Source: an uncultured Planctomycetaceae bacterium
Lineage (GTDB): Bacteria > Planctomycetota > Phycisphaerae > SM23-33
NCBI GenBank assembly: GCA_964521005.1
Contig: CAZFPT010000001.1
Coordinates: 3,122-67,121 of the forward strand
Direction of reading: 5' to 3'
DNA: 64,000 nt
Below are positions 9,676 to 64,000 of the stretch, piece by piece. Positions within the stretch are counted from its first letter, which is position 1. Every line of letters begins with the position of its first letter. The position numbers and the translations under genes were made by a program. The notes beneath the pieces were generated by a model. It was not told where the DNA came from, ran no database searches, and saw only the letters and a list, made by a program, of their open reading frames with translations.

Positions 9676-9676
9676 G

Positions 9677-12195: not shown

Positions 12196-12233
12196 TGCTG
12201 CTCAATCCCGGTGGGGAGTGCACGGTAGTTCGC

Positions 12234-13613: not shown

Positions 13614-13633
13614 GGTCGCTCGCTTCGCTCGCA

Positions 13634-15963: not shown

Positions 15964-15983
15964 TTTCGGTGTCCTCTCAAAGG

Positions 15984-16694: not shown

Positions 16695-16697
16695 GGA

Positions 16698-19574: not shown

Positions 19575-19682
19575 GCGGAATGTCCTTTCCCGTGCGACGG
19601 CGATAAACCCTATGGTATGAATCCGATGGGCTGACTATACCGCGCCGGGGCAGGGCGGGAAACCCCATCGCCGGCAGGCAGG

Positions 19683-20891: not shown

Positions 20892-20901
20892 GGGGCGTCC
20901 T

Positions 20902-21270
20902 CTACCGGGGGGTGTCGGGCGCGTCGCCCTGGGCGAGCTGCCGGTGGGCGGCGTCGAGCGATTTGACCGTCGGAATCAGGTCGGGCAGCTTGACGGTGTC
21001 CAGCAGGCGACGGATCGCCGGGCGCGGGCGGGCGATGACCAGCCCGGCATTGCGCTCCTTGGCGAACTCATGCAGTGTGAACAGGGCCCCGATCCCCGAA
21101 GAGCTGAGAAACGTCACGTTCCCGAGGTCCACGACGATGCCCGTGACGGCGTCGCCCTCGCTTACCTCGCGAACCTTGTCCACCAGGCCGCCGCGTGCGC
21201 GCCACTCCATCTGTTCGGGACAGTACACCGTGTACACGCCCCCGCCATCCGATTTGACCTGCAGATCCAT
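20902..21270 (-). CDS. STAS-domain anti-sigma-factor antagonist
   Basis: 'IVVDLGNVTFLSSSGIGALF' is STAS/SpoIIAA-like. Start is MDLQVK (M148 of the track ORF). Confidence 0.6.
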   Translation of the reverse strand: MDLQVKSDGGGVYTVYCPEQMEWRARGGLVDKVREVSEGDAVTGIVVDLGNVTFLSSSGIGALFTLHEFAKERNAGLVIARPRPAIRRLLDTVKLPDLIPTVKSLDAAHRQLAQGDAPDTPR

Positions 21271-22116
21271 GGCCGTCCTTTCCGTTCCGGGCGGCCTGGC
21301 CGGTCTTCGCCGGAGACGGGCCGCCGGTAGGAAAGAGTAGAACCCCGCCCCTGGAAGATCAATACCCCTCACCAAAGATGACGAAGGCCGATGGGCATTC
21401 ACGGGCACAAAAAACGCTCGGGCCCCCGCGGAGGGAACCCGAGCGCGTCCACAAAACCCTCGGTAGTTGCGCAATTGCAAGGTATCCGTCTTCGGTGGGT
21501 CGTGGACCTGTACTGAGATTATACGCTCCATGGGAACCGCGGGAAAACCGCCGACCCGATTTATGCGAAAAAATGCCCGCGATGGCAGATATCCGCCCAC
21601 GCCATCACGCAAAAAGCCGGACACGTCAGCCGAGAAGAGGCCCGTAAAGTATTTTAGGAGATAAGGATACGATGGGACTCGGCCCGTGATACTCAATATA
21701 CTGAGACTCATTCCTTTTTCTGAGATTTGTAATTATTCGCAACCCCTTATTGAGAAACATAGTACAATACGGCCAGCAGCGGGAATCGTTCGTGTGATGG
21801 GTCACCGTAAAGCAGACGGGGGGCAGTGATGATCCTCCTTTTCTGCTCCCGCGAGAGGCCGTCTCGGCACGCGGGTCGCTGCTTGGACGACATTCAGCAT
21901 TCCGTCGATGGCGTTCGTCGTTGACGGCATGGAAGCCGGACCAGCTCTCCCCCTGGCTGGTCCGTGCCAGGCAGACTCGGCGTGCCCGGCTGGGTCTGCC
22001 GCTTTATGCGCAACGGACCGCGCCCGAATTGCGTCCATTCCGTCGAGGGTGCTACCATGTCACGCGGGGCGAGAGAGCTTTGCCCCGCTCGGGTTCCCAC
22101 ACGAAAGGATCGCAGC

Positions 22117-35204: not shown

Positions 35205-35669
35205 TCAGCGGGCGCGGGGAACCGCAAGTCGATAGCGACATTTCCGGCGGTCTCCTCGCTGGTACATCTCGCAGCCGGGAGGTACGTCGACGATTCCCAT
35301 CAACTCGGCGCCGAGGATCTCGCAGGTCCGCCGGGAGGGAGTGTTGTCCGGGTTGACGGTGATCCAGAGCTCCGCAAAGCCATGCCGCGCCGCCAGCGGA
35401 AGCAGGAGCTTGCACGAACGGGCCGCGTACCGCCTGCCGCGAAAGGGCGGATCCACGCCATAGCCGATGTGGCCGGCGTAGAACCTGAGGAACTCGGTAT
35501 CGCCCACGCGCAGGCTGATCCGCCCCATCTTCTCGCCCGTCTCATCGTGGACCATGTGGAACTCGTAGGCGGGCACCAGGCCGCGCCGGGGGTCGGCAGG
35601 GCAGGTGCGATGGAGCATCAACGCCAGCTCGCCGTCGATCATGGGGTCGGGATCAAGGAATCGAAACAT
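35205..35669 (-). CDS. GNAT-family N-acetyltransferase
   Basis: 'GYGVDPPFRGRRYAARSCKLLL' matches acetyltransferase motif A. Start is MFRFLD (M17 of the ORF). Confidence 0.5.
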   Translation of the reverse strand: MFRFLDPDPMIDGELALMLHRTCPADPRRGLVPAYEFHMVHDETGEKMGRISLRVGDTEFLRFYAGHIGYGVDPPFRGRRYAARSCKLLLPLAARHGFAELWITVNPDNTPSRRTCEILGAELMGIVDVPPGCEMYQRGDRRKCRYRLAVPRAR

Positions 35670-35718
35670 GGGTTTTTCTCCCCCGCGCCGCGAACCGGTG
35701 CGGGCTTCGCCTCCCATT

Positions 35719-36873
35719 TTACTCGCCCGACTCGCGGCGGGTCCCCGAACGCTGCTGGTATCGCGAGCGGAACTCCGCCGGCGGCTGACCCGTATGGCGT
35801 TTGAAGATGTCCGTGAAACGAACCTTGTTGGTGAACCCGCTTTGCAGCGCGACCGATTCGACGGTGGAGTCCGTGCGGATCAGAAGCTGTCTGGCACGCT
35901 CAATCCGCTGTCGGTGGATTTCCTTCAGCGGCGTTCGCCCGAGGTGTTCGCGGAAGCGGACCTCCAGCACCCGCCGCGAAACGGGGACAGCCTCGATCAG
36001 ATCGCCCACGTTGATCTGCTCGTGAACGTGTGCCGCGATGAACCGCAGCGCCGATCGGACCACCTCGTCCTCGACGGCGAACGTGTCCGACGATTGGCGG
36101 GCGATGACCGTCTCGGGGGGAACCAGCACCGTCCGGGGTTGCTCCACGTGGTAGCCGATGCCTTCGTCGATGAGCGAGTAGAGCGTCTCGGCTGCGCGGT
36201 ATCCCAACAGCCGCCACGGGATGCGCACGCTGGAGATGGTCGGTCGAAGTACTTCGCAGATCCGCGGGGTATCGCCCACTCCCACGACGGCAAGGTCCTC
36301 CGGGACGGGAACGTCTTCCTCCTCGGCTGCCAGCACGACCTCCATGGCGATATCGTCCAGCGTCGCCAGCAGGCCCACCGGTTTGGGCAGGTCCGCCAGC
36401 CACCGGCGGAACTCACCACGCACGGCGGAGTCCGAGAGAAGGGCGTCGCGCGTCCAGGTGTGGCATTCCAGCCCGGCGGCCCGGACGCTCGACTCGAAGG
36501 CCTCCTGACGCTCGACGGCGAAGTGTTCCCAGTTGCGCGAGACCACTGCGAAGCGGCGGTATCCCTTCGCCTGCAGGTGGCTGGCGGCCAACTCGCCGAT
36601 GGCCCGGCTGTCGGCGACCACGCTGGTGACGCCCGGCTCGGCGAGCACCCCAGAGACATTCACCACCGGCAGATCCAACCCGGCGAGCGATTCGACGTTA
36701 CGACGGGTGCTCAAGTGCCCGATCACGCCCCGAGCGCCCTGCCGCATCTGGGCGAGTCGGGAAAAATCACTGCTGCGGATCTGGGCGGCGGCGTCGTGGG
36801 TCTTTACGTAGTCGGCCACGCCGAGCGCGACGTCGTCGTATACCCCCGCGCAAAGGATGGTGGGTATGTCCAT
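35719..36873 (-). CDS. XylR-type transcriptional regulator (periplasmic-binding-like sensor + AraC HTH)
   Basis: N-terminal LacI/PBP-like sugar-binding fold and C-terminal AraC HTH 'VGDLIEAVPVSRRVLEVRFREHLGRTPLKEI...GFTNKVRFTDIFKRHTGQPPAEFR'. Start is MDIPTIL (M30), with a GGAGAT RBS. Confidence 0.7.
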   Translation of the reverse strand: MDIPTILCAGVYDDVALGVADYVKTHDAAAQIRSSDFSRLAQMRQGARGVIGHLSTRRNVESLAGLDLPVVNVSGVLAEPGVTSVVADSRAIGELAASHLQAKGYRRFAVVSRNWEHFAVERQEAFESSVRAAGLECHTWTRDALLSDSAVRGEFRRWLADLPKPVGLLATLDDIAMEVVLAAEEEDVPVPEDLAVVGVGDTPRICEVLRPTISSVRIPWRLLGYRAAETLYSLIDEGIGYHVEQPRTVLVPPETVIARQSSDTFAVEDEVVRSALRFIAAHVHEQINVGDLIEAVPVSRRVLEVRFREHLGRTPLKEIHRQRIERARQLLIRTDSTVESVALQSGFTNKVRFTDIFKRHTGQPPAEFRSRYQQRSGTRRESGE

Positions 36874-37098
36874 TTGATCTCCCTGGTTGGAACGAAGCAT
36901 GGCTGGGTGACCATGCGGAGCGGAAAACATTACCATAAAAACGTTACGTATATTGCGCATTTTAATGAAGGCGTGGAGAAATGCAACGTGTTTAACTCAG
37001 AAGGAAGCTCGATGTGTGTTCTGCCGCGGCAGGGCGTCTGTCGCTGGGGGGCGGTTTGCTGTCGCACGCGCACCAACCACCAACAAGGAGAGAGCGAA

Positions 37099-39447
37099 AT
37101 GGGCATGTGGATCAAGGCAGGTCGGCTGACGATGCTGTTGGCGGTGACGTTCGTGATGGCGACGACGGCGGTGTCTGCCGACGACTACAACGCCGTTCTC
37201 ACGCTGGAGACCATCGCCGGCGGCAGGGCGGATCTGATCCTGGAATTCCCGGTGCGCGACGGCGAATGGGGCAAAACCGCCTGGGGCGAAGCCATCTGGT
37301 TCAACCGCAGCCACCACTTCGCTCAGGTGGAGTCCAGCAAGCTCACCGACGGCAAACACGTCATCGAGATGGACCTGACCATCCAGGGCGACCCGTGGGT
37401 GCCCGGCGCGAAAGGACCGGTCACGCTCACGCTGAAACGCGAGGGGACCTCCTACAGCGGGACGTACGCCGGCAAACTGGGCGGCAAGGACGTCTCGGGC
37501 AAGGTCCACGGAACCGTCGGGCCGGCCTGGCCGACGCCGATCAAGAACGTCACCCCCGCCAAGCCCGGCGAACACCCCAAGCTGATCTTCCGCAAAGGCG
37601 AGTTGAAAGAGCTTCGTCGCCGCGCCAAGGAGACACCCGAGGGCAGAGCGATCATGGCCAGGACCATGAAGATGCTCGACGCGAAGTACAAACAGGAGGC
37701 CGACAAGCGGACGAACTGGCCGGCGATCGGGTACGGGTTCGCCTGGCAGATCACCGGCGAGAAGAAGTATGCCGACAAGGCCCGCGAGATCATCGAAAAG
37801 ACCATGTTCCAGAACCCCGCCGGCCGACGCGGGCAGGGGATCGGGCAGGACATCCATCACGCCCCGCGCCTGCAGGGGCTGGCGCTGACGTACGACCTCT
37901 GTTACGACGCCTGGGACGCCGATTTCCGCGCGAGGGTCGTCGGCGACATCCAGCAGCGTGTCCGTGAGTTGCGGGCCGGCAAGTTCGGCGGGGGGAAGAT
38001 GCGCGGGTTCAACCCCAATTGGTGGTCGAACCACAACGGCATCCGCGCCGGGTGCATGGGGCTGGGCGCCCTGGCGGTGATCGGCGAGAAGAACGCCGAG
38101 GGCAAAACGCTGGAAGACGCCGAGCAGATCATCGCCGAGGCAGCCCGTGGCGTGCGGATGTATTACACGATGGGCGTCAGCGGATCGGGCTGGAACATGG
38201 AAGGCGCGTTTTACAAGGTCATGACGATGCGGCGGGGGCTGGTCCATTTCGTGCAGGCCTACAACAAGACGATGGGCGAGGATTTTCTGGCCGGGCCTGT
38301 GGGCGATTTCGACATGGTCAATTACTTCATCGAGAACGAGCCGGGCAAGGGTTGGCCGAAGCTGGACGGGGTGGTCTGGACGGTCGACCTGGTGACGGTT
38401 CCCGACGGCATGATGCCCGGCGTGAAGCACATCTGGGACCGCACCGTCGGGTTGAAGGGCAACAGGACCTTCGGGATCGACCACAGCATGAACGCCGCCT
38501 ACGCCCTGACGAACTACCCGTTCGACGTCAAGGCTGCCGAGCCGACCGAGAGCATCCGCTGGGTCGCCCCGGACCCGCGCAAGGGTCACTACGTCTTCCG
38601 CCCGACGTATCGTGACAAGGACGACGTTCTGGTCGTGTTGAATCTCAAGTCGCGCATTCTTGCCGGCTGTCACTACGAGCGGTCCGGCGAGGTCTCGGAG
38701 TTTCACCTGCGAAGCAACGGTGTGAAGTGGATCAGCGGAACGTACCTGCCGAAGGTGATGGACATCCCCGCCGGGAACGATCTGCACGGGCCGGTGGTCG
38801 TCGCCGAGAGCGACCTGGGCGAGAAGACCTACGCCATGGACATGAAGCTGGACCACGCCTATTTCACCATGGGACGGGGCAAGACCCCGCCGCGCGGAAC
38901 CGAGTTCGTGAAGATTCCCAACTGGGGCAAGCCGTTGATCGACCGCGGGATCCGCGGGACGCGATCGATGATCGTGGACTGCTCCGGCAAGAGCGGCTGT
39001 GACGTGTTGATCGCCATGCGCGACGTGATCCGCCGCAAGACCGACGACGGCTACGAGCCGGTCAAGACGCGATGGACGCTGCCGCTGGACAAGAAGGCCG
39101 GCAAACTGGAGATCGAGGGCAACCGGTTCACGATGTCCAACGACGGCGATGCCGTGCTTTCGGGCATGCTCGTCGGCGACGTGCAGATCGGTCGAAAGGA
39201 GCCCAAGAAGCAGGCCAAGCCCAAGGTGAACGTGCCCGACTGGGTCAAAAAGGCCAGGAACATCAAGACCGACGTACTGCCGCCCAAGAGCCTCCACGCC
39301 GACGGGACCGGCCCGTGGTGGGTGGTGATCGGGATCTCCGACGGCAAACCCGCCCAGATCAAGGTCAGCGGCGCGGGAGAAAAGACGGCCGTGACGGTCG
39401 GCAAGCGAACGATTACACTCAAGGACGGTTCGCTGCATATCGAGTAG
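37099..39447 (+). CDS. secreted polysaccharide-lyase-like protein (alginate-lyase/heparinase II/III-like alpha/alpha toroid suspected)
   Basis: AAGGAG RBS and signal peptide 'MGMWIKAGRLTMLLAVTFVMATTAVSA'. A helical central region contains 'NPNWWSNHNG'. It is the 782-aa C-terminal part of track ORF 35605..39447. The family assignment is tentative. Confidence 0.4.
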   Translation: MGMWIKAGRLTMLLAVTFVMATTAVSADDYNAVLTLETIAGGRADLILEFPVRDGEWGKTAWGEAIWFNRSHHFAQVESSKLTDGKHVIEMDLTIQGDPWVPGAKGPVTLTLKREGTSYSGTYAGKLGGKDVSGKVHGTVGPAWPTPIKNVTPAKPGEHPKLIFRKGELKELRRRAKETPEGRAIMARTMKMLDAKYKQEADKRTNWPAIGYGFAWQITGEKKYADKAREIIEKTMFQNPAGRRGQGIGQDIHHAPRLQGLALTYDLCYDAWDADFRARVVGDIQQRVRELRAGKFGGGKMRGFNPNWWSNHNGIRAGCMGLGALAVIGEKNAEGKTLEDAEQIIAEAARGVRMYYTMGVSGSGWNMEGAFYKVMTMRRGLVHFVQAYNKTMGEDFLAGPVGDFDMVNYFIENEPGKGWPKLDGVVWTVDLVTVPDGMMPGVKHIWDRTVGLKGNRTFGIDHSMNAAYALTNYPFDVKAAEPTESIRWVAPDPRKGHYVFRPTYRDKDDVLVVLNLKSRILAGCHYERSGEVSEFHLRSNGVKWISGTYLPKVMDIPAGNDLHGPVVVAESDLGEKTYAMDMKLDHAYFTMGRGKTPPRGTEFVKIPNWGKPLIDRGIRGTRSMIVDCSGKSGCDVLIAMRDVIRRKTDDGYEPVKTRWTLPLDKKAGKLEIEGNRFTMSNDGDAVLSGMLVGDVQIGRKEPKKQAKPKVNVPDWVKKARNIKTDVLPPKSLHADGTGPWWVVIGISDGKPAQIKVSGAGEKTAVTVGKRTITLKDGSLHIE

Positions 39448-40302: not shown

Positions 40303-40761
40303 CCGCACCGCCCCCGGCCGGATGCGAATTTTATTGAGGCGGCCGTAGGGCTGGCGAACCGTCGGCTGCAGGCGAGGCAAACGCTTGCAGGCCAAGGCGC
40401 TGTGTGTGACAGGAGACACCCGGCAGGCAGAGCGGGAAGACGGTTTGCCGGCGGAATGTCTCGGCCCTGTTCGCGTCCCCGTTTCGCCGGCAATCCGCCT
40501 CGTTTGCCTCACTGGTCGGCAGGTATCGGAATGAAACGCTTTCTGAGCGGCGATGCTCCTGGCGAAACGCGCCCGACGGATCGCCAGCCCTACAAGCTTT
40601 GACCCCATGACCGCGCCGTCGCCGGCCCGGCTGGGTGCTTGCGAAACCGCTCGATCCCTGCCATGATGGCGTTCTGAAGGATCCGCATGCGGGCCGACCC
40701 GAATTTCCGCCGGGCGCGTTGAAGAAACGGCGCCCCGCGCGCGTCGGCACCGTTGGTACCC

Positions 40762-43700
40762 ATGACTTACAGGAGACTGATCGTGACGCATTTCTCTCGC
40801 TGGATCGCACCGTTTGTTTTGCTGGGCGTCGCTGCGCTGGTTGTGGCCCCCGCCGCCGGTAGACCTGTTCCCGAGAAGCTGCAGAAGACCTCGCTTGCCA
40901 AGGTGCTGGATACGTCGTCCAGTATCGAGGACTTCATGCTTACCCTCTCCGGCGGCGTCTTCACCGAGAAGGTCAATCGCACCACGGGCAAGGGACAGCG
41001 GGTGACCAAGGACCTGAGGCTGTATTTCAAGCGTCAGGACGGCGAGTGGCTGGCGAATGTCTCGGGCGTGGCTTCGGGGTTCAACCAGGCCGCCACGAGA
41101 GGCAAGATTCTCCCCGACAAGTCGGACAAGAACACCGTGGCGATGATGCTGAACATCGGCTCGGATCGCTGGGTCGAGGGCGACGCGTCCGCCCCGTACA
41201 CCATCGAGATCCGCATCGCCGACGGCAAGGTGGAGGGGACCTACAAGGGCACCTTCCAGGGCCATGCCGTCGAGGGCGAGGTCTCCGGCGTGGTGCGAAC
41301 CGGCGGCTGGGTAAACTGCACGGAGAAAGACGGCGTGATCCACGTCGAGCTGAACCTGGGTACCAAGCGGGTCAACTGGAACAACGCGCGATGGGCCGTC
41401 AACGACCTCGGCCTGCCGGTGAACATGAGCGAGCACGACGGGCTGGTCTTGACCGTCGAGACCGACAAGCCCCGCCACGACGCGTGGGTGGACGTCGGGC
41501 TCATGGAGAACGACGGCTCGTGGTACTACCTCCGCGACGCAGCCCCGCTGACGCAGAAATCGCAGACGGTCGTGATCGACTTTGACGACTTCCGACACGC
41601 CGAGTGGATATTCAACGCTGCCGGGACGGGTCCCGGGGCGGACGGGAACTTCGACGAGGACTTCCACCTCGATCGCAAGAACATCGCGCGGATTGCCATC
41701 GGCACGGTGAACGCCAACGGCGTGGGAACCGTCAAGTTCCGCGTGACCGATATCTCGCTGGGCAAGTGGAAGACGACGTCGCCGGATCCCGACAAGGTCA
41801 CCGTCAGCGGACAGACGTACACCGTCAACGGCACCGGACAGGTCCCCGACGGGATCTTCGGGTTCCACACCGCCGGCGGAAGCGACGGCCAGGTGTCCGA
41901 CCTTCGCGTGGGCAGCCTTCGGCCGTTGCGGGCGATGGCCGGTGGCGGGGCGTTTGTCGCTCCCCCCAACCCCAAGGCCGACGTGTTCCTGCGCGTCTCC
42001 ACGAACTACGACCGTCGCCAGCAGGTCCCGCCGGCCGACTGGGGCGCCGATTGGGCCCGCAAATGCAAGTCGGTCGGGCAGAAGCTCGGCCAGGCCGCCA
42101 AACCCTACGGAGACCAGGTGGCGGTGGAGTGGTGGAACGAGCCTTACCTCGACCTCGGCCGAATGCTGCCCGGCAGCGTTGCCCGCAACGCCGACAAGGA
42201 CCAGGACCGCACCCCGGGCAAGCCCGTGTACATGCACGGGAGGAAGCTCGAATCGATGGTCTGGACGAAGGTGGACGGCAAGGTCGTACCGCGAGATCCG
42301 AGCCGGTTCACCTACTGGTCGGGCCGGCAGTTGGGGATCTTCTACACCGACTCGTTTGAGATCGTCGCCGCCGAAGCCAAGAAGATCGCCCCCGAGATGC
42401 ACATGGTCGGCGGGTTCGGGTTCCGCTGGCAGGAAGACGACTGGGCCGCCTGGAACCTGCTCTACAAGCCGATGATCGACCAGACCATCGAGAATCTCGA
42501 CGGGGTCTGTGAGCACCACTACCAGGGACACACCGACGCGATGGCCGCCTCCTATGAGGTGCTCGTCGCCTACGGGATGGCCAAGCACGGCAAGCGACTG
42601 ATCGCCTACAACACCGAAACCAACGACCTCTGGGACGCACCGGCCCGGGGGCGGTCTGCCGCCACCACGCAATTCGGCGGGAAGTTCAAGTCCCGCAAGC
42701 GACTGATCTACAACGTCCGGGACATTCTTTACTGTGCCATCGAAACGCCCGACAAGATCCGGGCCCGGGCGATCCATGCCCTCTGGGGTGGCGCGAAGGA
42801 CAACCGCGTTAAGATCGGCCAGGAGATCCGCGACCGGAAAGGCCGGGTCAAGCTCACCGTCACCGGCACCAAGTGGGCCGACTCGGCGACGCTCGGCGAT
42901 CAGAACATCACCGCCGAGAAGGGCAAAACGCTGCTGATTCTGGATGTCAAGGCCTGGTCGAATCGCGGCGGAGCCGTCGGGCTGGGCGAAGTCACCGCGA
43001 AGATCGGAAGCGCGACCACCAAGGCCCCCGCGACGGCAGGCAGTTTGCCCGGAAAGCTCAAGAAGAATCAGACCGTCGAGGCGCAGATCGCCTTCGTGTT
43101 GCCTGCCGCAGCCAAGAGCGACGGCATCGTTACCTGGAACCCGGGACGCGGCATGCGGAACATCGTCCACGTCCACGGGCCGTTCGGCGAGGCCGACATC
43201 GCGCCGCACCGCCGGGCGGGCATCGACGAGGGCGAGTACGTCGCCCTGCAGTTCCTCAAGGAGCTTCGCGGAAGTCTGGTTGCCGCCGAGTCCAGCGATG
43301 AGATGATCTGGGTGGCGTCGAGCATCGACCCGCGAAGCAAGGCGTTGGTGGCCGTGGTGTACAACGACGACTACAAGACGCGTTCGCCGGCCGTCCAGCT
43401 CAAGGCCCCGGCGGGGACGTCCTTCGTGAGTGGCGCGGTGGAGTACCTCGTGCATGGCGACGACGGCGATGTGGGCATCCGCACCGAGAAGATCCAGCGC
43501 GTCGGGGACAAGGCCTGTGCGGTGGATCTCAAGCTGCCGGCCGCCCATGCCGCCAAGATCGTGTTGCGGCTGAAGGGGTCGCTGCCCGACAGCGCCGATC
43601 TCAAACGCACGCAGACATTCTGCAAGGCCCCGAGCAAAGACGTCGACCCCATCCTGCATGAGATGGCCCCCGGCGAGTCGCTCTCGCTGCCGATCGCGCT

Positions 43701-43965
43701 TTCGGGCGATGCTCACCAGAGCAGGCGGGCGTGGATTCGCCTGGTGGTCGAACGCGTGGGCCCCGGCGAGGGCACGGTGGAAATCGGCGGCAGGACGTTC
43801 GCCATTCCCCGCGCTCACACGCCGTGCAATGGCCCGTACATCCGAAACATCGAGATCGACCCGGACCTGCTCAAGGGCGTCAAGGAACTGACGTTCAAAG
43901 CCGCCGACGCCACCAACGGCAACGGGTTCCTGCTGGGGATGGCCTCGATCGTGACCGAGAAATAG
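40762..43965 (+). CDS. large secreted protein, possible clan GH-A glycoside hydrolase core
   Basis: Signal peptide (...FVLLGVAALVVAPAAG) and an acid/base-like 'WWNEPYLDLG' motif. An alternative GTG start at 40783 has an AGGAG RBS. The track ORF uses TTG at 40753. Confidence 0.45.
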   Translation: MTYRRLIVTHFSRWIAPFVLLGVAALVVAPAAGRPVPEKLQKTSLAKVLDTSSSIEDFMLTLSGGVFTEKVNRTTGKGQRVTKDLRLYFKRQDGEWLANVSGVASGFNQAATRGKILPDKSDKNTVAMMLNIGSDRWVEGDASAPYTIEIRIADGKVEGTYKGTFQGHAVEGEVSGVVRTGGWVNCTEKDGVIHVELNLGTKRVNWNNARWAVNDLGLPVNMSEHDGLVLTVETDKPRHDAWVDVGLMENDGSWYYLRDAAPLTQKSQTVVIDFDDFRHAEWIFNAAGTGPGADGNFDEDFHLDRKNIARIAIGTVNANGVGTVKFRVTDISLGKWKTTSPDPDKVTVSGQTYTVNGTGQVPDGIFGFHTAGGSDGQVSDLRVGSLRPLRAMAGGGAFVAPPNPKADVFLRVSTNYDRRQQVPPADWGADWARKCKSVGQKLGQAAKPYGDQVAVEWWNEPYLDLGRMLPGSVARNADKDQDRTPGKPVYMHGRKLESMVWTKVDGKVVPRDPSRFTYWSGRQLGIFYTDSFEIVAAEAKKIAPEMHMVGGFGFRWQEDDWAAWNLLYKPMIDQTIENLDGVCEHHYQGHTDAMAASYEVLVAYGMAKHGKRLIAYNTETNDLWDAPARGRSAATTQFGGKFKSRKRLIYNVRDILYCAIETPDKIRARAIHALWGGAKDNRVKIGQEIRDRKGRVKLTVTGTKWADSATLGDQNITAEKGKTLLILDVKAWSNRGGAVGLGEVTAKIGSATTKAPATAGSLPGKLKKNQTVEAQIAFVLPAAAKSDGIVTWNPGRGMRNIVHVHGPFGEADIAPHRRAGIDEGEYVALQFLKELRGSLVAAESSDEMIWVASSIDPRSKALVAVVYNDDYKTRSPAVQLKAPAGTSFVSGAVEYLVHGDDGDVGIRTEKIQRVGDKACAVDLKLPAAHAAKIVLRLKGSLPDSADLKRTQTFCKAPSKDVDPILHEMAPGESLSLPIALSGDAHQSRRAWIRLVVERVGPGEGTVEIGGRTFAIPRAHTPCNGPYIRNIEIDPDLLKGVKELTFKAADATNGNGFLLGMASIVTEK

Positions 43966-56787: not shown

Positions 56788-59352
56788 CTACTTCAGCGGC
56801 GTGAACACCAGGATGGCCGGTTCGTCTTCCGGGTCGTTGCAGTTGCTCCGGTCGATGATCGCGAGGTACTTCCAGGCGTTCTTGGCGGGCACGTCATCGC
56901 CCACCTGCACGTGAATGATCGCGGCGAACGTGTCGCTGCGGACGGTTACGAGGTTGGCCACCGCGTTGTAGAGTCGGTCGCGGGCGTCGATGAATTCCGG
57001 GTGCTGCACGAGCTTCCGGACGGCCGCGTTGGCGGCGGGGTCGGTCGTGGAGGGGTCCCACCCCAGTCGGGCGCTCATGTAGTGGGCCAGGGGGACGGCC
57101 AATTCGCCGGGTGTGCGGAAGCCTTCCAGCGACTGATCTTTACGGAGATCGGGTATGTACGTCTGGTGCTTGGTCCGCTGGGCCAGGCGGTAGTCGATGA
57201 TCTCCCGGGCGAGGTCCGAGCGGGAGATGGAGAAGGTCTTGCCATCCATCGTGATGGATGTCGGCCAGGGCAGGTTCTCCAGAATCGCCCTGGGCGCTGT
57301 GTTGATGTTGATCAGTCCATACGCCCGCCGGTAGTCGTCTGTGCGAGTTAGGTCGCCCTCGTGCATGGCGAAGAACTCACCCAGCAGGCACCCCAGCGGC
57401 ACGCGGGGATAGGTGTTGGGCTGCACGGCGATATCGGGGGTATAGAGGCTCGGTCGACCACGGCCGGGGATGTCCTTGAAGTCCACCGCCTCGCGGTCCT
57501 CCTGCAGGATCTGTTTGCTGAACGGCGTGTGGGTGGAACCGTCCTTCTGCGGGGCGGTCATGTAGACCCGGGCCATCTCGCCGAGGCTGCGCATTTCGTT
57601 CTGGCCGAAATTTCCCACGTCGACGATCGGCACGGAGTTCAGGGCGTCCTTGTCCTTGAGGTCCTCGCTGGTGAGATTGTTGTCCTCACCCAGCCGGTGG
57701 GTCTTGTCGGCGGTGTACGCCTTGTAGACGGCCAGGTTGTACCGGGCCCGCTCGAGGTTGTCGTCGCGGCGGATGCACTTGGTCGTCCCCGCATCGGTCC
57801 GGATGTCCGTGCCGGCGTAGTCCAGATCGTCTCCGCTGACCTGGTCGACGATCACCTCGCCGCGGAAGAGCTGAATCACGTCGCTCTGGTCGAATCGCAG
57901 CTTGGGGTTGTCCACCTCGAACCAGCCTGTGGTGTCCAGACCGGTGTCGTCCTCGCGGTCGGTTTCGTTGCCGGTGTAGCTGCCACCTTCCTCGAAGCTG
58001 TAGAGGACGGCCTTCTTGCCGGGTTGGATCGCCTTGGCGGGCAGGTTCACGTCGTCGCTGCCGACCACGATCCGGTATTCGTTGAGATTGATCGCCTTAC
58101 CGGTGGGGTTGAGCACCTCGATGGCGAACCCGGCGATGTGGTCGTCTGCGTTCGGGGCGGATTCGGGCTTGTGGGACGCGTACGCCTCGGTAATCACCAG
58201 CCGCTGCTTGAGTCCCCACGCCGTCACGTCGCCGGAGGTGAACTTCCACGGCGCGTCGGTCTCGCCCTTGGAGGAATACGCCCAGAGGTTGGCGGTGAGG
58301 CAGGCGGCGAGGCGATCGCGCTGCGTGTTGTCCTTGCCGTACTGGATGGAGTACAGCAGTCGGCGGATCTGCGTGTACACGTCGTTGCGTTTGGCGGCAG
58401 TGCCGAGGTCCAGCTTCAACGGTGCGTCGCCCTTCAGTTGCGGCCAGCGCATCAACCGGCGCGAGCAGCTGTAGGTTGTCAGCAGCGAGCGGGCGTCGTT
58501 GGAGAGATTCACGCCGAGCTCGTCGACGAGCCGACCGGTCTCGGTCATTGCGTCGTCCTCGTAGTACCGCAGGTACATCTCGTCGCTGACGGCGAAGGGC
58601 TGATACTGGTCGTCAAGAGGTTTGAGCAGTCGCGACGCGCCGCGGACGTAATACTGCAGGAGGTTCGGAGCGGAGGTCCAGTTGTTCACGTCGGTCCGGG
58701 CCATGTGGATGCGACGGTAGGCTGTGGTCCCCAGGATGCCTTCCAGGTCGTACAGCGTCGGCGCAGCCGGGATGACGAGGTTCTCCGGGCTGCCGGTGGT
58801 GGTCCCGCCGGTATTGATGCACGCCCGTCCGGCGAGGTCGATCACCTTGACGGCCATCCAGTATCGCTGACCTGTGGAGCTGACCGATCGCGAGTTTCGC
58901 AGCCAGGCGTCTTTGCTCCCGTCGGCGTCGACGTCGATTTTCGTGCGGGGTTCGTTCGCCTCGAACGGGTACAGCAGCGAGAACAGATCCCGCGACCCGT
59001 CGGTGTGTGTCAGATACATGTCGGGGCGGGCTTTGAGCGTCCACCACACCGCGTCGTCGAGCGGCCGAGCGGTTTCGCCGTACGCCAGAACGGGGATTGT
59101 CTCGGCGTCCAGGCCGGTCCGCGAGTAGGGCCCGTTGCTGCCGATGTGCAGGTCGTTCTTGAGCATCTCCGCCATGCGCATCACCGCGCCGCCGGCGACC
59201 TGCGTGGACTGGTTCCGCGTAACGACGGCCCGCGAACTCTTGGCGTTCAGGTGCGAGACCAGCAGGAACGTCGTCCCGAGCATTACCAGGATCGCCAACA
59301 GCCCGATGGTGAGCATCAGGGCCGAGCCGTGTTTTCTATGGTTTGTGTACAT
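56788..59352 (-). CDS. GspK-like type II secretion minor pseudopilin, unusually large (854 aa)
   Basis: N-terminus 'MYTNHRKHGSALMLTIGLLAILVMLGTTFLL' resembles the GspK leader (KRGMALVVVL...). It is the last gene of the pseudopilin operon. An alternative GTG start at 59376 overlaps the upstream stop. Confidence 0.5.
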   Translation of the reverse strand: MYTNHRKHGSALMLTIGLLAILVMLGTTFLLVSHLNAKSSRAVVTRNQSTQVAGGAVMRMAEMLKNDLHIGSNGPYSRTGLDAETIPVLAYGETARPLDDAVWWTLKARPDMYLTHTDGSRDLFSLLYPFEANEPRTKIDVDADGSKDAWLRNSRSVSSTGQRYWMAVKVIDLAGRACINTGGTTTGSPENLVIPAAPTLYDLEGILGTTAYRRIHMARTDVNNWTSAPNLLQYYVRGASRLLKPLDDQYQPFAVSDEMYLRYYEDDAMTETGRLVDELGVNLSNDARSLLTTYSCSRRLMRWPQLKGDAPLKLDLGTAAKRNDVYTQIRRLLYSIQYGKDNTQRDRLAACLTANLWAYSSKGETDAPWKFTSGDVTAWGLKQRLVITEAYASHKPESAPNADDHIAGFAIEVLNPTGKAINLNEYRIVVGSDDVNLPAKAIQPGKKAVLYSFEEGGSYTGNETDREDDTGLDTTGWFEVDNPKLRFDQSDVIQLFRGEVIVDQVSGDDLDYAGTDIRTDAGTTKCIRRDDNLERARYNLAVYKAYTADKTHRLGEDNNLTSEDLKDKDALNSVPIVDVGNFGQNEMRSLGEMARVYMTAPQKDGSTHTPFSKQILQEDREAVDFKDIPGRGRPSLYTPDIAVQPNTYPRVPLGCLLGEFFAMHEGDLTRTDDYRRAYGLININTAPRAILENLPWPTSITMDGKTFSISRSDLAREIIDYRLAQRTKHQTYIPDLRKDQSLEGFRTPGELAVPLAHYMSARLGWDPSTTDPAANAAVRKLVQHPEFIDARDRLYNAVANLVTVRSDTFAAIIHVQVGDDVPAKNAWKYLAIIDRSNCNDPEDEPAILVFTPLK

Positions 59353-59372
59353 CGCTGCATCCTTCCCGGGAA

Positions 59373-60263
59373 TCACTTCCCAATGGTGCAGATAACTTCG
59401 TACTCGTTGCCTTCGCTTTCCGCGCGGGCGGCGTCGGGAAGGGCAACGTCTTTGATGGTGAATGTCAGCTTGACCGCGGCAGGCCAGTTCGCCTGGTTCT
59501 CATTGGTCCACAGGGCGCGGTAGCGTTTGTTCGTGGTGCCCACCTCGTACTCGATGTCCGAGTTGTTCGCCTTCGAGCCGGGCCCGTACCACTTGAGCCC
59601 ATCCGAGCCGCGCGTACCGTCGGTCCAGCGAATTTTCAGCTCCGTACATCCCGGTGCCAGCGCCTGCCAGAGCTTGTGGAGATCGGCCTGTTGCTGAATG
59701 GGAATGGTCACCGACGTGGGCGCCTGGCCGATGGCATACTCGATGTATTCCTCGACGCTGTTCGTGCCGCCTCCGCCGGGGTCTTCGCGAGGCAGGACGA
59801 CGAATTCCGAGAGGTCCCAGCTCTGCATGTCCCCATTGGAGAGCCCCTTGTCGTTCAGCACCCAGCCCTGGCGGAAGAGTGTCTCTTGGTCCATGCCGTC
59901 GGTATCGCATAGGCCGATCGTGACGACCGAGCCGCTTCCGGTGTTCGCCGAGGTGACGCTTTCGGTCAGGCCGGCCTGGGTGAAGATGAGCATGTCGCCC
60001 GAGCTCGTCTCCGCGATGCACAGAAAACCGCTCTGGGTCACGCGGCGCAGGTCGGCCCGCAGGATCTGCGAAAGGGCGGTGGCGGTGTTGTTCTTGCGCA
60101 TGTGCGAGTTGGATACGGACACGACGCGCTGGCTGGTCGAGAGGATCATGCTGAAGGAGAGAATCAGCATCGCCAGGATGGCCACCGCGACCAGCAGTTC
60201 GATGAGCGTCAGTCCTCGGGCGGTGGCGCGGGCGGATCGGGATGTCGTCAATGTCTCGTGCAT
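59373..60263 (-). CDS. prepilin-type N-terminal cleavage/methylation domain pseudopilin (GspJ position)
   Basis: 'RGLTLIELLVAVAILAMLI' has a class III signal with Glu at +5. Confidence 0.6.
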   Translation of the reverse strand: MHETLTTSRSARATARGLTLIELLVAVAILAMLILSFSMILSTSQRVVSVSNSHMRKNNTATALSQILRADLRRVTQSGFLCIAETSSGDMLIFTQAGLTESVTSANTGSGSVVTIGLCDTDGMDQETLFRQGWVLNDKGLSNGDMQSWDLSEFVVLPREDPGGGGTNSVEEYIEYAIGQAPTSVTIPIQQQADLHKLWQALAPGCTELKIRWTDGTRGSDGLKWYGPGSKANNSDIEYEVGTTNKRYRALWTNENQANWPAAVKLTFTIKDVALPDAARAESEGNEYEVICTIGK

Positions 60264-60273
60264 GGGATCTCGT

Positions 60274-60996
60274 TCATTTCTCCGGAAGGGCCGTCCGGAT
60301 GGTGTAGGCAGCCAGCCCCGTGGGGGCGATGATCTTCTCGCCGCTCTCGACGAGGACCCAGACCTTCACTTTCGTCTCGGTGCTCTCCATCCGCGTTCGC
60401 AGGATCGCCTCGCCGCCCTCGATTCCTTCGATGGAGGACAACTCACCGGTGTCGGCGCGAATCAGCGGCGAGTCCGGCAGCACGCCGGCCGGGAAGCTCC
60501 CCGTGGCGCGCGACGCGTCGCCGCGGTCCGAGATGTTGACGTTGGCCTGCTTCATCTCCACGGTGTTGTCGGTGCTGTTGAGCTTGTAGGAGACGACGGT
60601 CAGCTGGTAGTCGTTCTCGTCGCCGACGTGCCGTGCGAGCACACAGTAGCCGTAGGGGCTGGTGGGACTGCCGTCCGAGTCGATCGAGTCGGCGGGGTAG
60701 GTTCGCTCGGCCGGTTTGAGCTCGTCCGTGACGTCCTCAAGCTCGTCCGATCCGCCGATGGGGTTGCCCGGGTTGTGTCGCAACGCCGTGATCGCCACCG
60801 ACGCCCCGTTCTCGCAGATGATGGTTCCCACCACGTTGCGGAAGGACTGGTTGTTGTACTGCATCGCCGCGGCAAACAGGCCGGCCGACATCGTCAGGCC
60901 GTAGGCGATGATGCCCAGGGCGATCATGAGCTCCGAGAGCGTGAATCCCCCGCCTCCAGCCGATCGTCTCGAATTGGTTCCGAATCGTTTTCTCAT
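60274..60996 (-). CDS. prepilin-type pseudopilin (GspI position)
   Basis: 'GGGFTLSELMIALGIIAYG'. Confidence 0.6.
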   Translation of the reverse strand: MRKRFGTNSRRSAGGGGFTLSELMIALGIIAYGLTMSAGLFAAAMQYNNQSFRNVVGTIICENGASVAITALRHNPGNPIGGSDELEDVTDELKPAERTYPADSIDSDGSPTSPYGYCVLARHVGDENDYQLTVVSYKLNSTDNTVEMKQANVNISDRGDASRATGSFPAGVLPDSPLIRADTGELSSIEGIEGGEAILRTRMESTETKVKVWVLVESGEKIIAPTGLAAYTIRTALPEK

Positions 60997-60999
60997 GGG

Positions 61000-61752
61000 T
61001 CAGTCCAGTGGGAACAGCTGTCCCGTGTGTATGTTGATTGGCAGGAGAATCGCGTTGCGGTTGATGTAGTCGCCCTTATCGCCGGCGGCGTCGAAGTCCT
61101 TGTAGTTGAACATGCAGATGGCGGCAGTGCCGTACTCGGCGTCCTGGGTTCCGCTGGCGTCGGGGCTGGTGCGGTTGGTCGTCCAGAGGCGTGTGCGGGC
61201 GCCGCTGGAGGTCACCAGGTCGCTGGAGGGCGAGAGGCGGATTTCCCTGCCCTGCACGCTGCGAACCAGTCGGCCGTTGGGCGAGAAGACGATGGTCATC
61301 GTCGTGAAGCTCTTCGGGCTTCTGTAGTCGAACTCGCCGTCGCCGCCGCCGGCGAAGATCTCGCCGGTCTCGTTGGACAGGTCGCCAAAGGCAATGTTGC
61401 CGGGAACACGCTCGGGCTTGGATTCCGGAGCGATGTCGAAATTCGCGTTCGAGCTGTCCATGCTCTCCAGCGTGACCAGCGAGGTGAAGCAGACGCCCTC
61501 CAGGTCCGGGTTGCGGCTTTCGTCGGCCAACTGGATGTGTACGCCGGCGTAGGTCCCGTTCCGCATGGCCGTCGAACGGGCGGCGCGGATCTGCGCGGAG
61601 ATCAGATTGTACGATTGCTTGTCCGCACCGGCTGAGAGCAGGGCGGAAATGCTCGGAAGGGCGATGCCCGCCGCCAGGACGATCACGCCCAGCACGACCA
61701 TCATCTCCACCATGGTGAACGCACCGCAGGTTGTCTTACGTCGTGTGTGCAT
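61000..61752 (-). CDS. prepilin-type pseudopilin (GspH position)
   Basis: 'CGAFTMVEMMVVLGVIVLAAGI'. Start ATG at 61752 has a GAGGTG RBS. Confidence 0.6.
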   Translation of the reverse strand: MHTRRKTTCGAFTMVEMMVVLGVIVLAAGIALPSISALLSAGADKQSYNLISAQIRAARSTAMRNGTYAGVHIQLADESRNPDLEGVCFTSLVTLESMDSSNANFDIAPESKPERVPGNIAFGDLSNETGEIFAGGGDGEFDYRSPKSFTTMTIVFSPNGRLVRSVQGREIRLSPSSDLVTSSGARTRLWTTNRTSPDASGTQDAEYGTAAICMFNYKDFDAAGDKGDYINRNAILLPINIHTGQLFPLD

Positions 61753-61769
61753 CGTGCACCTCAATAGGG

Positions 61770-62261
61770 TCAGCGGTCCGAGCGGATATCGTCGTGGCCA
61801 TACTCGTCACCCTCGCTGCCGAACCGCCGGTCCGGCCCGGGCGAGATCAGCACGGGCGTTCCGCCGAACCCGCCGTCGGCGTCGTATTTCATCTCCTCGC
61901 CGAACCCGTCGAGGAGCTTGTTGTCCTCCCCGCCGAGGTTCTCCCCGCTCAACTGGTCGAGAATCGCCGAGGCGCTGTCGCTCTTGCGGAGCTCTTTGAC
62001 CAGTTTGCCCGTATCGCTGGCCTGCGGGGGGGCGCTGTCGGGGTCCTCTTCCTGGTAGGCCTGGATGGCGCGGATGACGATCGCCATCGCCGCCTGGGTC
62101 TCCTTCTTGGCGGCAGAGTCGGTCACGTACCGACCGACGTTCACGATCAGCGCCACGATCAGGGCCATGATGAACATGACCACCAGCAGCTCGATCAGCG
62201 TAAAGCCATCCCCTCGGCGTCGGCGTGGGGCGGCGGGTTGTCCTGGTCCTGCAAAACGCAT
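61770..62261 (-). CDS. GspG-like major pseudopilin
   Basis: 'GDGFTLIELLVVMFIMALI' and a GspG-like C-terminus '...SPGPDRRFGSEGDEYGHDDIRS'. AGGAGA RBS. Confidence 0.7.
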   Translation of the reverse strand: MRFAGPGQPAAPRRRRGDGFTLIELLVVMFIMALIVALIVNVGRYVTDSAAKKETQAAMAIVIRAIQAYQEEDPDSAPPQASDTGKLVKELRKSDSASAILDQLSGENLGGEDNKLLDGFGEEMKYDADGGFGGTPVLISPGPDRRFGSEGDEYGHDDIRSDR

Positions 62262-62286
62262 GGAGCGTCTCCTGCGGTTGGCCTGC

Positions 62287-63000
62287 CTATTCGGGCAGGA
62301 AGTTGGTGATGTCGTCGGTGGTCACGTCGTCGCGGTAGGATCTCTTCTTGCCGTCCGGGCCTGCCGACCACAGAAAGAAGTCGTGGCGGAAATAATCGCC
62401 GTCGGCGTCCTTGTAGTACGAGTCGTTTGGCCCGTCGCCCTCGAACCGGGTGTAACTGATTGTGTTCTCGAATTCGTCGACGAAGACCAAGCCGCGGTGT
62501 CTGTCATTGCCCTTCGTGTCCTTCTTCAGCCGAACCTTTTCGGGGTCCACGTACGGGCCGACCTTGCGTTTGTTGGCCTTCATCCGAAAGCCGTACCCCT
62601 GGACGCCGTCATCACCCATCACGATCTCTTCGCGAGTTACGGTGTCTGTCGGGTGCGGCTTGCCGTCGTTGCCGATATCGGGGAAGTAGCCCAGCAGACA
62701 CTGCACGAGCATCTTCGCCCCGTTCCATCCTGTCGGACACTGCCAGGCAGTCATCTCACGGTCATCGTCCGGGGGAAACTCGCCCCAGTCGTCGCGATAG
62801 AGTTTACAGCCGGCTTCGAGGTTGTTGATGGTCGCCTGCGAAGCCTTCACGGCGACCTGGCGGCGGACCTGCAGAATGGTCGGCAGGACGATGCCCGCCA
62901 GCAGGACAATCACCGAGATCACCACCAGCATCTCCACGAGGGTGAATCCCCGGTGGAAAGGTCGGCCGATGGGTCTGTCATTGCGGTCGGTCGCGTGCAT
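62287..63000 (-). CDS. GspG-like pseudopilin with H-X9-DG motif
   Basis: 'HRGFTLVEMLVVISVIVLLAGI'. C-terminal 'HDFFLWSAGPDG' is exactly H-X9-DG, followed by 'DDITN'. AGGAGG RBS. Confidence 0.7.
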   Translation of the reverse strand: MHATDRNDRPIGRPFHRGFTLVEMLVVISVIVLLAGIVLPTILQVRRQVAVKASQATINNLEAGCKLYRDDWGEFPPDDDREMTAWQCPTGWNGAKMLVQCLLGYFPDIGNDGKPHPTDTVTREEIVMGDDGVQGYGFRMKANKRKVGPYVDPEKVRLKKDTKGNDRHRGLVFVDEFENTISYTRFEGDGPNDSYYKDADGDYFRHDFFLWSAGPDGKKRSYRDDVTTDDITNFLPE

Positions 63001-63002
63001 GG

Positions 63003-63638
63003 TCAGCCTCCTGCGTTGCCGTTGGTGATGTCGTCGGAGGTAAAGTACAGGCGGTCGGCACCCGCACTGAGAAGCAGGTACGGCCCGCTGCCCCCGCCGA
63101 AGTTTCCGCCCTTCGTCTCGTCGGTGACCAACTCGCCGTTGTCGGACGCCCTGAAGTTCCCCTCACCCAGTCGCGAGGGGTAGTAGAGAATCGGCATCGG
63201 CGTGGGCAGCCCGTCGGAGAGCACGTTCTCATGGGTGGTTTCGTCGACCTCGTAGTCGAAGAGAATCCCCCCGCTGAAATCGGCGTACTGCGTCGAGGCC
63301 GGGAAGATATCGTCGCCGTCGTCGTCGGTCTTCGTAAACAGTGCTCTGGCCAGCAGCTCGCTGCCGTTGCTGGTGTCGGGGTCGTCCCGCCAGTTGGCGT
63401 TGACCTGTCCGGGGTAGTGGTTGTTGTTGACCTTGTACCAGAGGTCCACGCTTCGGCTGAGCGATTCCAGCCGGGCCTTGGCCTTGGTCTGGTTCATGGT
63501 CTTGATCACCGACTGGACCGTGGGCACGAGGATGCCCATCAGCAGCGTGATGATCACGATCACCACCAGCAGCTCCACGAGCGTGAACCCGCCCGGCAGG
63601 CTGCTTTGCCGTCGTCTTTGTCTGGTCCGTGGCGTCAT
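63003..63638 (-). CDS. GspG-like pseudopilin
   Basis: 'PGGFTLVELLVVIVIITLLMGIL' and C-terminal 'GPYLLLSAGADRLYFTSDDITN'. GAAGGA RBS. Confidence 0.7.
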   Translation of the reverse strand: MTPRTRQRRRQSSLPGGFTLVELLVVIVIITLLMGILVPTVQSVIKTMNQTKAKARLESLSRSVDLWYKVNNNHYPGQVNANWRDDPDTSNGSELLARALFTKTDDDGDDIFPASTQYADFSGGILFDYEVDETTHENVLSDGLPTPMPILYYPSRLGEGNFRASDNGELVTDETKGGNFGGGSGPYLLLSAGADRLYFTSDDITNGNAGG

Positions 63639-63643
63639 GGCGT

Positions 63644-64000
63644 CTAGTCCTTCTTCCAGCTGGTTACGTCGTCGGTGGTGAAGAACACGCGATCCTCACC
63701 GGCGGCGACGAAGACGTACTTCCCGTCGCCATGGGGGATCCCGGTCTTCTCGTTCCGCACCAGGTCCTCCAGGCTGCCGTCGGTCTCGGTCAGCAGGGCG
63801 CTGTTCTGGTTTTCCCTGAACTGGTTCACGTTGCCGCTGCGGTCCGGGTGCGCGGGCCAGTAGCAGATCGCCATCGGCCGGGGGAACCCGTCCATCGGCG
63901 CCCACTTCTTGCCGACTTCATTGCCCGTCTCGTCCAGCAGATTCTCGGGAGGCCTTCCGACGTAGGCGTCTTCCGGCTCCCAGCCGCTACGGAAGGGGTT
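63644..64000 (-). CDS. GspG-like pseudopilin, 3' portion only (N-terminus beyond window)
   Basis: The frame stays open to the window edge. C-terminal 'GDGKYVFVAAGEDRVFFTTDDVTSW' matches the other paralogs. Confidence 0.5.
   Translation of the reverse strand, partial: NPFRSGWEPEDAYVGRPPENLLDETGNEVGKKWAPMDGFPRPMAICYWPAHPDRSGNVNQFRENQNSALLTETDGSLEDLVRNEKTGIPHGDGKYVFVAAGEDRVFFTTDDVTSWKKD

Follow-up and report, generated by a model that had tools for sequence, protein, structure and literature searches.

The closest described relatives of the system considered here are the type IVa pilus and the type II secretion system (T2SS), and one feature by which they are told apart is the retraction paralogue PilT, which is usually lost in T2SS (PMC6668835). 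The K-type proteins come in two forms: some take their last beta-strand from PilY1, while in those of T2SS and of competence pili, as well as in Tad CpaL, the strand belongs to the protein itself and is supplied around a dispensable middle region (Ellison et al. preprint, PMC12918778). Modular pilins have in addition been described as binding modules displayed at the filament tip (Raynaud et al., PMC8179133). Here we examine eight pilin-like genes (G1 to G4, H, I, J and K) at the end of a 64,000-nucleotide stretch of DNA from an uncultured Planctomycetaceae bacterium (contig CAZFPT010000001.1; the whole stretch is called the window below). We argue that these genes probably form the distal two thirds of one 12-gene type IV filament operon that is conserved in the Phycisphaerae (Planctomycetota), and we consider it fairly likely that they supply the subunits of a type IV filament which can retract and which bears a modular, GspK-like protein at its tip.

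Sediments, lakes and hypersaline mats harbour abundant Phycisphaerae, but to our knowledge the cell-surface machinery of these bacteria has hardly been studied. A full-text literature search returned no paper on the 12-gene operon, every part of which belongs to a known superfamily.

The operon and its conservation

The initial annotation of this DNA had found no GspD, GspF or GspC and no prepilin peptidase next to the pilin genes, and had suggested that the pilins may work with an unlinked machine. Inside the window the observation stands; for GspF and the ATPases, however, it reflects only the position of the window edge, and the proposal of an unlinked machine was thus an artefact of the window end, because one of three overlapping contigs continues directly into motor genes. 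Exact-protein look-ups led to these three short-read assembly contigs, of which L001 is 100% identical to window positions 59285-64000, and L002 and L003 are 99.8-99.9% identical to positions 60779-64000 (L002 99.78%, ~3.2 kb). Since the source contig of the window proteins is recorded as 74,132 nt, ~10 kb of it lie outside the window. L002 extends 6.7 kb past the window end and there carries, in the same orientation and with tight spacing, the genes E1, T, E2 and F immediately upstream of a complete G1. A look beyond the window end, which had been proposed as a check, thus turned up a gspF-type platform gene plus three ATPases; a secretin and a prepilin peptidase, sought by the same check, were not found in the operon.

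The four added genes were scored against NCBIfam models. E1 (570 aa) is a PilB/GspE-like ATPase with 608.9 bits for PilB and 588.7 bits for GspE, and E2 (584 aa) a second one with 624.0 bits for GspE and 617.3 bits for PilB, the PilB scores of both falling under the cut-off of 675.65. T (380 aa) belongs to the PilT family, with 455.5 bits against a pilT_fam cut-off of 319.1, and carries AISNLIRE, one residue off the PilT signature AIRNLIRE. F (420 aa), directly before G1, is a GspF/PilC platform protein with 400.6 bits for GspF and 366-368 bits for the PilC models, the latter under their cut-off of 700. The GspE score of E2 and the GspF score of F are just short of the respective equivalog cut-offs. 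Judged by these scores, the PilT homologue is classed as a pilT_fam member, and PilB and PilC as matches at family level only. The MshE-type domain with the c-di-GMP-binding motif (MshEN) scored above cut-off in both E1 and E2, both of which also carry a CxxC...CxxC zinc motif. A non-coding leader of ~360 nt precedes the operon and contains a sigma-70-like promoter candidate, TTGACG-N18-TAAAAT, read by eye at L002 117-152, ~215 nt upstream of E1.

The order of the whole operon is E1 (MshEN), PilT-family ATPase, E2 (MshEN), GspF/PilC, G1-G3, G4, H, I, J and K. It is kept in a Phycisphaerae metagenome-assembled genome (MAG) in which K is only 46% identical and three downstream genes are syntenic too (L004), and at 85% identity in a Planctomycetota MAG (L006). 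With E1 as the query and one genome per GTDB species, 316 related stretches were retrieved; among the best 80 of these 316, on which the taxonomic labels were judged, almost all are labelled Phycisphaerae or Planctomycetota. Dozens of GTDB species representatives share the 12-gene order, and in every sufficiently long locus tblastn with the 12 proteins recovered E1-T-E2-F and then G-type genes and those for H, I, J and K. A motif-based count across the related loci gave 5-7 prepilin genes in succession after F, the typical set consisting of 1-3 large pilins (210-290 aa), one small pilin (150-190 aa) and three of 230-360 aa. Lineages differ in how many pilin genes they have, as exemplified by the related loci L050, L051, L058 and L044: some have two tandem small G4-type genes and others a single large pilin. 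Upstream of E1 no conserved gene was found across 51 loci, the neighbours being unrelated and often divergent, and 3' of K lies a convergent RNase_H_2-like gene; the operon thus appears to be self-contained at 12 genes.

The pilins and the GspK-fold protein K

All eight minus-strand open reading frames (ORFs) that the initial annotation had placed between window positions 56788 and 64000 were recovered at the same coordinates. Their GC content at third codon positions (GC3) is 0.82-0.94, compared with a genomic GC of ~0.64, and on this ground we take them to be real coding sequence. In the direction of transcription the order is G1-G2-G3-G4-H-I-J-K, with seven prepilin-type signals followed by K with its GspK-type leader; Pfam N_methyl or TIGR02532 matched 7/7 of the prepilin-type proteins (full-length G1 being taken from L002). 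ORFs, GC3 and signal matches together bear out the earlier description of eight tightly packed genes with prepilin-type signals in all but the last, and the order of one or more G genes followed by H, I, J and K is real as well. The leaders of the G copies had been called long and Arg-rich; across the seven prepilin-type proteins the leaders have 11-19 residues and are rich in Arg/Lys, with 3-5 each. G1, which had been said to be cut by the window edge (63644..64000, minus strand, C-terminal 118 aa by translation), is indeed 220 aa long on L002, its 5' part lying beyond the window end. As for spacing, the tight packing stands, although the gaps, given earlier as 2-23 nt with some overlaps, are 2-25 nt: with database gene calls they are, from the K side to the G1 side, 20, 10, 3, 17, 25, 2 and 5 nt, and a stop/start overlap arises only with a GTG start of K. 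No minus-strand terminator-like site was found inside the pilin block, and the NCBI label for its genes in public records is "type II secretion system protein".

The initial annotation had counted the major pseudopilin four times. It appears more accurate, on the matches described here, to speak of one GspG-type gene, G4 (61770-62261, minus, 163 aa, adjoining the start of the H-I-J-K set), which comes after three larger pilins specific to the lineage, G1, G2 (63003-63638, minus, 211 aa) and G3 (62287-63000, minus, 237 aa). PF08334 (T2SSG) matches 11/24 G4 orthologs, with a best E of 2e-6, but 0/48 members of the G1-G3 family. Likewise G4 aligns with the GspG model TIGR01710 almost from end to end (residues 19-150 to model 2-124; 29.9 bits against a cut-off of 88.85), whereas G1-G3 reach 46-49 bits against the same cut-off through the N-terminal helix only. 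A conserved PVLISAGPD...DNIRSD motif marks the C-terminus of G4, and G4 appears to be the most canonical pseudopilin-like subunit, of GspG type. Against solved structures the G1-G3 family aligned only through its N-terminal helix, and type IV pilins and GspG were matched equally well. The leader of G1, MFQSLPQHRPGRTARDG/FTLIELL (the slash marks the end of the leader; L001/L002), scores 32.7 bits with TIGR02532, above cut-off, and the GspG model covers its N-terminal helix only. G2 has an N_methyl match of 25.3 bits, a TIGR01710 match of 48.7 bits confined to residues 17-78 and a C-terminal LLLSAGADRLYFTSDDITN motif, and its 56 homologue matches carry the source names "type II secretion system protein" or "prepilin-type...". 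The four proteins are 32-39% identical to one another and share a C-terminal motif of the type [LIV]xSAGxD(R/G)...DD(I/V)(T/R).

One G copy had also been reported to contain an exact H-X9-DG motif, and a derivation of the expanded DUF1559 family from GspG had been suggested on that basis. The string is present, as HDFFLWSAGPDG, in G3 only, the motif being absent from the paralogs G1, G2 and G4. Among G3 orthologs, however, a C-terminal H-X9-DG occurs in 3/29, all at least 83% identical, the His position being R, K, T or Y elsewhere, and neither PF07596 nor TIGR04294 matched any of the eight proteins at E<=1 or any of the 48 members of the G1-G3 family (0/48). With a variable His and no match to either family, the DUF1559 link is unsupported here; HDFFLWSAGPDG is a chance H-X9-DG string, and the conserved feature is an ordinary GspG-style SAGPD turn. 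The very name of TIGR04294 already calls H-X9-DG proteins prepilin-type.

The H-position minor pilin (61000-61752, minus, 250 aa; 254 aa from an alternative TTG at 61764) gave 16.3 bits with Pfam GspH against a cut-off of 21 and has TIGR01708 as its best NCBIfam match (26.4 bits); a family profile of 20 sequences aligned by hhalign to E. coli GspH with a probability of 95% over 61 columns. Its assignment as GspH-type thus receives moderate support from sequence comparison. The I-position protein (60274-60996, minus, 240 aa) has the class III signal GGGG/FTLSEL and 17.6 bits with TIGR02532, its N-terminal helix alone aligning to GspI or to solved pilins. The J-position protein (59373-60263, minus, 296 aa) has 26.9 bits with N_methyl, weak N-terminal matches to PpdC-like, PilV, GspJ and Verru_Chthon cassette C models, and an hhalign probability of 83% with E. 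coli GspJ over 43 N-terminal columns. When profiles of the H, I, J and G2 families were compared with PDB sequences, many pilins were matched but through the N-terminal helix only, and such searches therefore cannot separate type IV pilins from pseudopilins.

K (56788-59352, minus) has 854 aa from an ATG, or 862 aa from an alternative GTG at 59376. It is a modular GspK-fold minor pilin with an Ig-like insert. Its start, MYTNHRKHG/SALMLTIGLL, lacks Glu at +5, and both hhalign and the NCBIfam model place KHG/SALMLTIGLL against QRG/VALLIVL of E. coli GspK; the leader is thus a prepilin-type hydrophobic segment without Glu5, as in GspK. K possesses a pilin beta-sheet, an inserted alpha-domain and its own C-terminal strand, the features by which a GspK fold is recognized. 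This core is split into an N-terminal helix with strands, closed by IDLAGRACINTGG (residues 171-183), the first related K motif, and a C-terminal helix-hairpin-helix region with strands that include a conserved terminal strand. The C-terminal region opens with the motif YGLININTA (57295..57321, minus; residues 678-686), in which an alignment of 97 sequences shows no variation at N682 and hardly any at Y678, G679, N684 and A686; its likeness to the "..N.N.." of GspK was read from the E. coli protein and is not statistically significant alone. Between the two halves lie ~500 residues comprising a helical region, an Ig-like domain of putative lamin-tail type (57835..58206, minus; residues 383-506 of 854) and further beta-rich segments.

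The check that had been proposed for the 854-aa protein, detection of a GspK domain, therefore comes out positive as regards the fold, whereas the curated cut-off is not reached: the sole NCBIfam match of K is GspK (NF037980), at its N-terminus only and with 17.5 bits against a cut-off of 130, so that by score against this hidden Markov model K would not be called a GspK equivalog. PF03934 (T2SSK) did not match the K of the window. Among 51 diverse members of the K family NF037980 matches 21 (best E 5.5e-8), being the only recurrent NCBIfam family there, and PF03934 matches 4 (best E 4.4e-7), these being matches by E-value, none of them shown to attain a curated cut-off; Pfam LTD (PF00932) is found in 34/51, HHH_3 in 6/51 and CBM_5_12 in 2/51. 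Nothing was found when a profile of K was compared with PDB sequences; hhalign and hmmsearch against the single E. coli GspK aligned only the leader, and BLASTP of the K C-terminus against GspK gave no significant match. A first AF2 model of K, built from 10 sequences, was poor (pLDDT 53.5) with no significant Foldseek matches, and it was not relied on.

Word-index searches with K, made with the single sequence and then with an alignment, returned only 10-11 relatives and suggested a tiny family, a picture overturned by an exhaustive HMMER profile search, which found 2968 clusters (50% identity) at E<=1e-3 and 410 at E<=1e-30, most of these relatives being 830-1300 aa long. These ~3000 clusters of mostly "hypothetical" proteins are enlarged GspK-fold minor pilins. 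Some family members from elsewhere, up to ~1300 aa long, have other modules replacing or joining the Ig-like domain, the insertion hot spots lying after residues 128, 319, 640 and 730 of the window K, and one NCBI record in the family is named "golvesin C-terminal-like domain-containing protein".

Proposed mechanism and competing readings

Starting from the gene content and order, its conservation, the PilT family and the GspK fold and Ig-like insert of K, we infer how a retractile filament could operate, modelling it on the established GspH-K and PilV-X complexes. An unlinked prepilin peptidase would cleave the class III leaders. K, having no Glu5 and a conserved C-terminal beta-strand of its own, would nucleate a tip or initiation complex with I and J, which H would join to the filament body; the grouping of K with I and J is suggested by the adjacency of their genes. 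Below this complex G4 and/or G1-G3 would polymerize on the PilC/GspF platform, powered by the PilB-like ATPases, and this assembly is probably controlled by c-di-GMP. The PilT homologue would depolymerize the filament and so bring about its retraction, and at the tip the ~500 inserted residues of K could act as a module that binds a surface or a polymer. By analogy, K probably combines carrier and binding module in one protein.

With respect to type IVa pili, PilB, PilT and PilC all have counterparts in the operon, those of PilB and PilC at family level, and no PilY1/PilC tip adhesin that would complement a strand-less PilX/PilK is present: the operon ends at K without a PilY1 gene, and K has its own terminal strand. 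Several points weigh against a retractile type IV pilus. Neither Pfam scans of the window nor the operon yielded a secretin, PilM/N/O/P, GspC/L/M or a prepilin peptidase, and tblastn with E. coli proteins found none of them in 1.34 Mb of related loci. With T2SS models the scores of E2 and F are a little higher than with type IV pilus models, and the pilins have GspG-style C-termini in place of the disulphide-bonded D-region of type IVa pilins. The assignments of I and J are made from gene order plus weak N-terminal similarity, and the filament, its retraction and the tip role of K are predicted here from the genes. As to the missing envelope parts, the genes for PilM/N/O/P/Q and PilD are often unlinked.

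Although we judge it unlikely, the most serious competitor is a true T2SS, in which a short periplasmic pseudopilus of G4 with an H-I-J-K cap would use an unlinked secretin to push out folded exoproteins (e.g. polysaccharide-degrading enzymes), with PilT and the extra pilins in an accessory role. The order G-H-I-J-K after GspE and GspF mirrors gsp operons, the NCBI gene names are those of a T2SS, and this reading keeps some weight since E2, F, G4 and K lean toward Gsp models: E2 and F score best with the GspE and GspF models, just under their cut-offs, G4 orthologs have Pfam T2SSG matches, and K shows a GspK fold with its own terminal strand in a locus without a PilY1 gene (PMC12918778). However, a plain T2SS label fits badly, because the operon contains a PilT-family ATPase (455 vs 319 bits), and a PilT inside the operon argues for a pilus over a T2SS since PilT is typically lost in the latter (PMC6668835). 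GspE and GspF both fall short of the equivalog cut-off, and beside three extra large pilins there is a K whose ~500 added, presumably exposed, residues make it hard to fit into a periplasmic piston. Instead of GspC/L/M and GspD together with GspE-K and no retraction ATPase, the linked DNA offers a PilT, and GspC, L, M and D went undetected near any of ~80 loci; with GspO included, none of these components is present in the operon, the window or the 1.34 Mb of related loci, a test that covers linked DNA only.

Somewhat less probable still is a distinct Phycisphaerae-wide, retractile and c-di-GMP-controlled "pseudopilus-like pilus" in which K merges the roles of PilK and PilY1, its Ig-like or carbohydrate-binding inserts catch polysaccharide or DNA, and retraction reels polymers in for uptake. 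In such a system alternative filaments might be built on the one platform, either by the two PilB-like ATPases or from the three large pilins. The fibres of planctomycetal crateriform structures have been suggested to serve polymer uptake.

We rate as improbable a DNA-uptake (competence) pilus, in which K would capture DNA by its helix-hairpin-helix and Ig-like modules and the retracting filament would draw it to the cell surface. The PilT and the HHH_3 matches in 6/51 K-family members are consistent with it, the K-type minor pilins of competence pili without PilY1 carry a terminal strand of their own (PMC12918778), and the large minor pilin ComZ of Thermus is linked to DNA (PMC8179133). The helix-hairpin-helix, however, is not specific for DNA binding, being part of the ordinary GspK alpha-domain, comEA, comEC and dprA are absent from the operon and the window, and some K-family members (2/51) carry CBM_5_12 instead.

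The notion of a stand-alone pseudopilin or fibre module using a machine elsewhere (e.g. the STAS-linked ATPase 36 kb away) and tied to DUF1559 by H-X9-DG could appeal to the exact motif in G3 and to a 64-kb window in which no full-length GspE-type ATPase, GspF, secretin or peptidase lies beside the pilins, but it is refuted by the contig extension, which places two PilB-like ATPases, PilT and the platform directly upstream past the edge, syntenic in many genomes, and it has against it also a motif His that is not conserved, the lack of PF07596/TIGR04294 matches and a 402-aa ATPase (19683-20891) that has no N-terminal domains and no pilins beside it.

That ATPase was rejected as the pilin motor, being N-terminally short and without pilin or platform neighbours. 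It scores 387 bits with the GspE model, lacks the N1/MshEN region and has no pilins or platform gene beside it; it is encoded on the minus strand within 18540-21711, together with a STAS-domain protein (269 aa) and a PIN-domain ATPase-like protein (344 aa). Elsewhere in the window, positions 9220-17351 (minus) hold an operon for a V/A-type ATPase that encodes subunits c, I, D, B and A together with an E-like and a DUF2764 protein, and a 125-aa gene of the "23S rRNA intervening sequence protein" family (13721-14098) is lodged between its B and A genes. Because of a dnaA gene with all four Pfam domains (29104-30522, plus), the replication origin of the chromosome is probably not far from the window; from one end of the window to the other the cumulative GC skew climbs steadily with no obvious turn. 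Two plus-strand ORFs of 1280 aa (35605-39447) and 1070 aa (40753-43965) have coding-type GC3 and no Pfam match at E<=1e-4, the shorter beginning with a hydrophobic, signal-like segment. Finally, a 190-aa minus-strand ORF (7410-7979) consists nearly entirely of Lys/Ala repeats (KKTAKKAAKKTAKRAKK...) and resembles histone-H1-like nucleoid proteins, a gene call that is uncertain because an alternative plus-strand ORF overlaps it.

Comparison with known systems

The literature searched describes neither the conserved Phycisphaerae architecture, nor its mixture of T2SS-like with type IVa pilus-like features, nor the recognition of thousands of 830-1300-aa "hypothetical" proteins as enlarged GspK-fold tip proteins with Ig-like inserts. 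In practical terms, the analysis offers a concrete annotation for hundreds of MAG loci that are now called "type II secretion system protein", and it puts forward a candidate system, open to testing, by which planctomycetes might adhere or capture polymers. How type IV filaments are understood in general is left unchanged.

The locus resembles type IVa systems (pilB-pilT-pilC with FimU/PilV/PilW/PilX, equivalent to GspH/I/J/K) in that an assembly ATPase, PilT and the platform stand side by side, PilT scoring above its cut-off, and are followed by pilins and then by a four-member minor-pilin set ending in a K-type protein without Glu5. It differs from them in having two PilB-like ATPases, both with MshEN-type N-termini, in the GspG-style C-termini of its pilins, which show no obvious D-region disulphide, and in the absence of PilY1, K keeping its own terminal strand and carrying large inserts; pilMNOPQ and pilD were not found nearby. 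From the gspE-F-G-H-I-J-K arrangement of T2SS (E. coli, Pseudomonas Xcp) it is set apart by PilT and the three extra large pilins, by a K of ~2.6-3 times the reference length (854 vs 280-327 aa), and by H, I and J proteins of 250, 240 and 296 aa as opposed to 169, 125 and 195 aa for E. coli GspH, I and J; moreover, GspC, D, L, M and O are unlinked here, and no component reaches its T2SS equivalog cut-off in NCBIfam.

The Verru_Chthon cassettes A-D (TIGR02596-TIGR02600) are likewise sets of prepilin-type proteins from the PVC superphylum, and H, J, G2 and G4 show weak N-terminal matches to cassettes C and D. These scores are, however, far under the cut-offs (e.g. 20.8 vs 256.5) and involve the N-terminal helix only, and K was unmatched to cassette A; membership in these cassettes was thus rejected.

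As regards the tip, Caulobacter CpaL/TadG, Thermus ComZ, S. sanguinis PilB and Vibrio MshQ with MshP offer the nearest likeness to K, each joining a pilin or GspK-type carrier to a bulky tip module (PMC8179133). Profile, Pfam and NCBIfam searches revealed no sequence similarity of K to CpaL, ComZ or PilB, and K differs from these three in that its carrier is a full GspK fold including the alpha-domain and its inserts are a putative lamin-tail Ig domain and uncharacterized helical and beta regions. CpaL resembles GspK in that its N-terminal pilin sheet is completed by the strand at the very C-terminus, with a dispensable middle in between (PMC12918778), and K would be another natural K-type tip protein with its own adhesin-like module, in agreement with the beta-strand-complementation model of filament initiation. 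Proteins of the K family end a conserved operon that also encodes PilT, and in it the features used to split T2SS from type IVa pili are found mixed.

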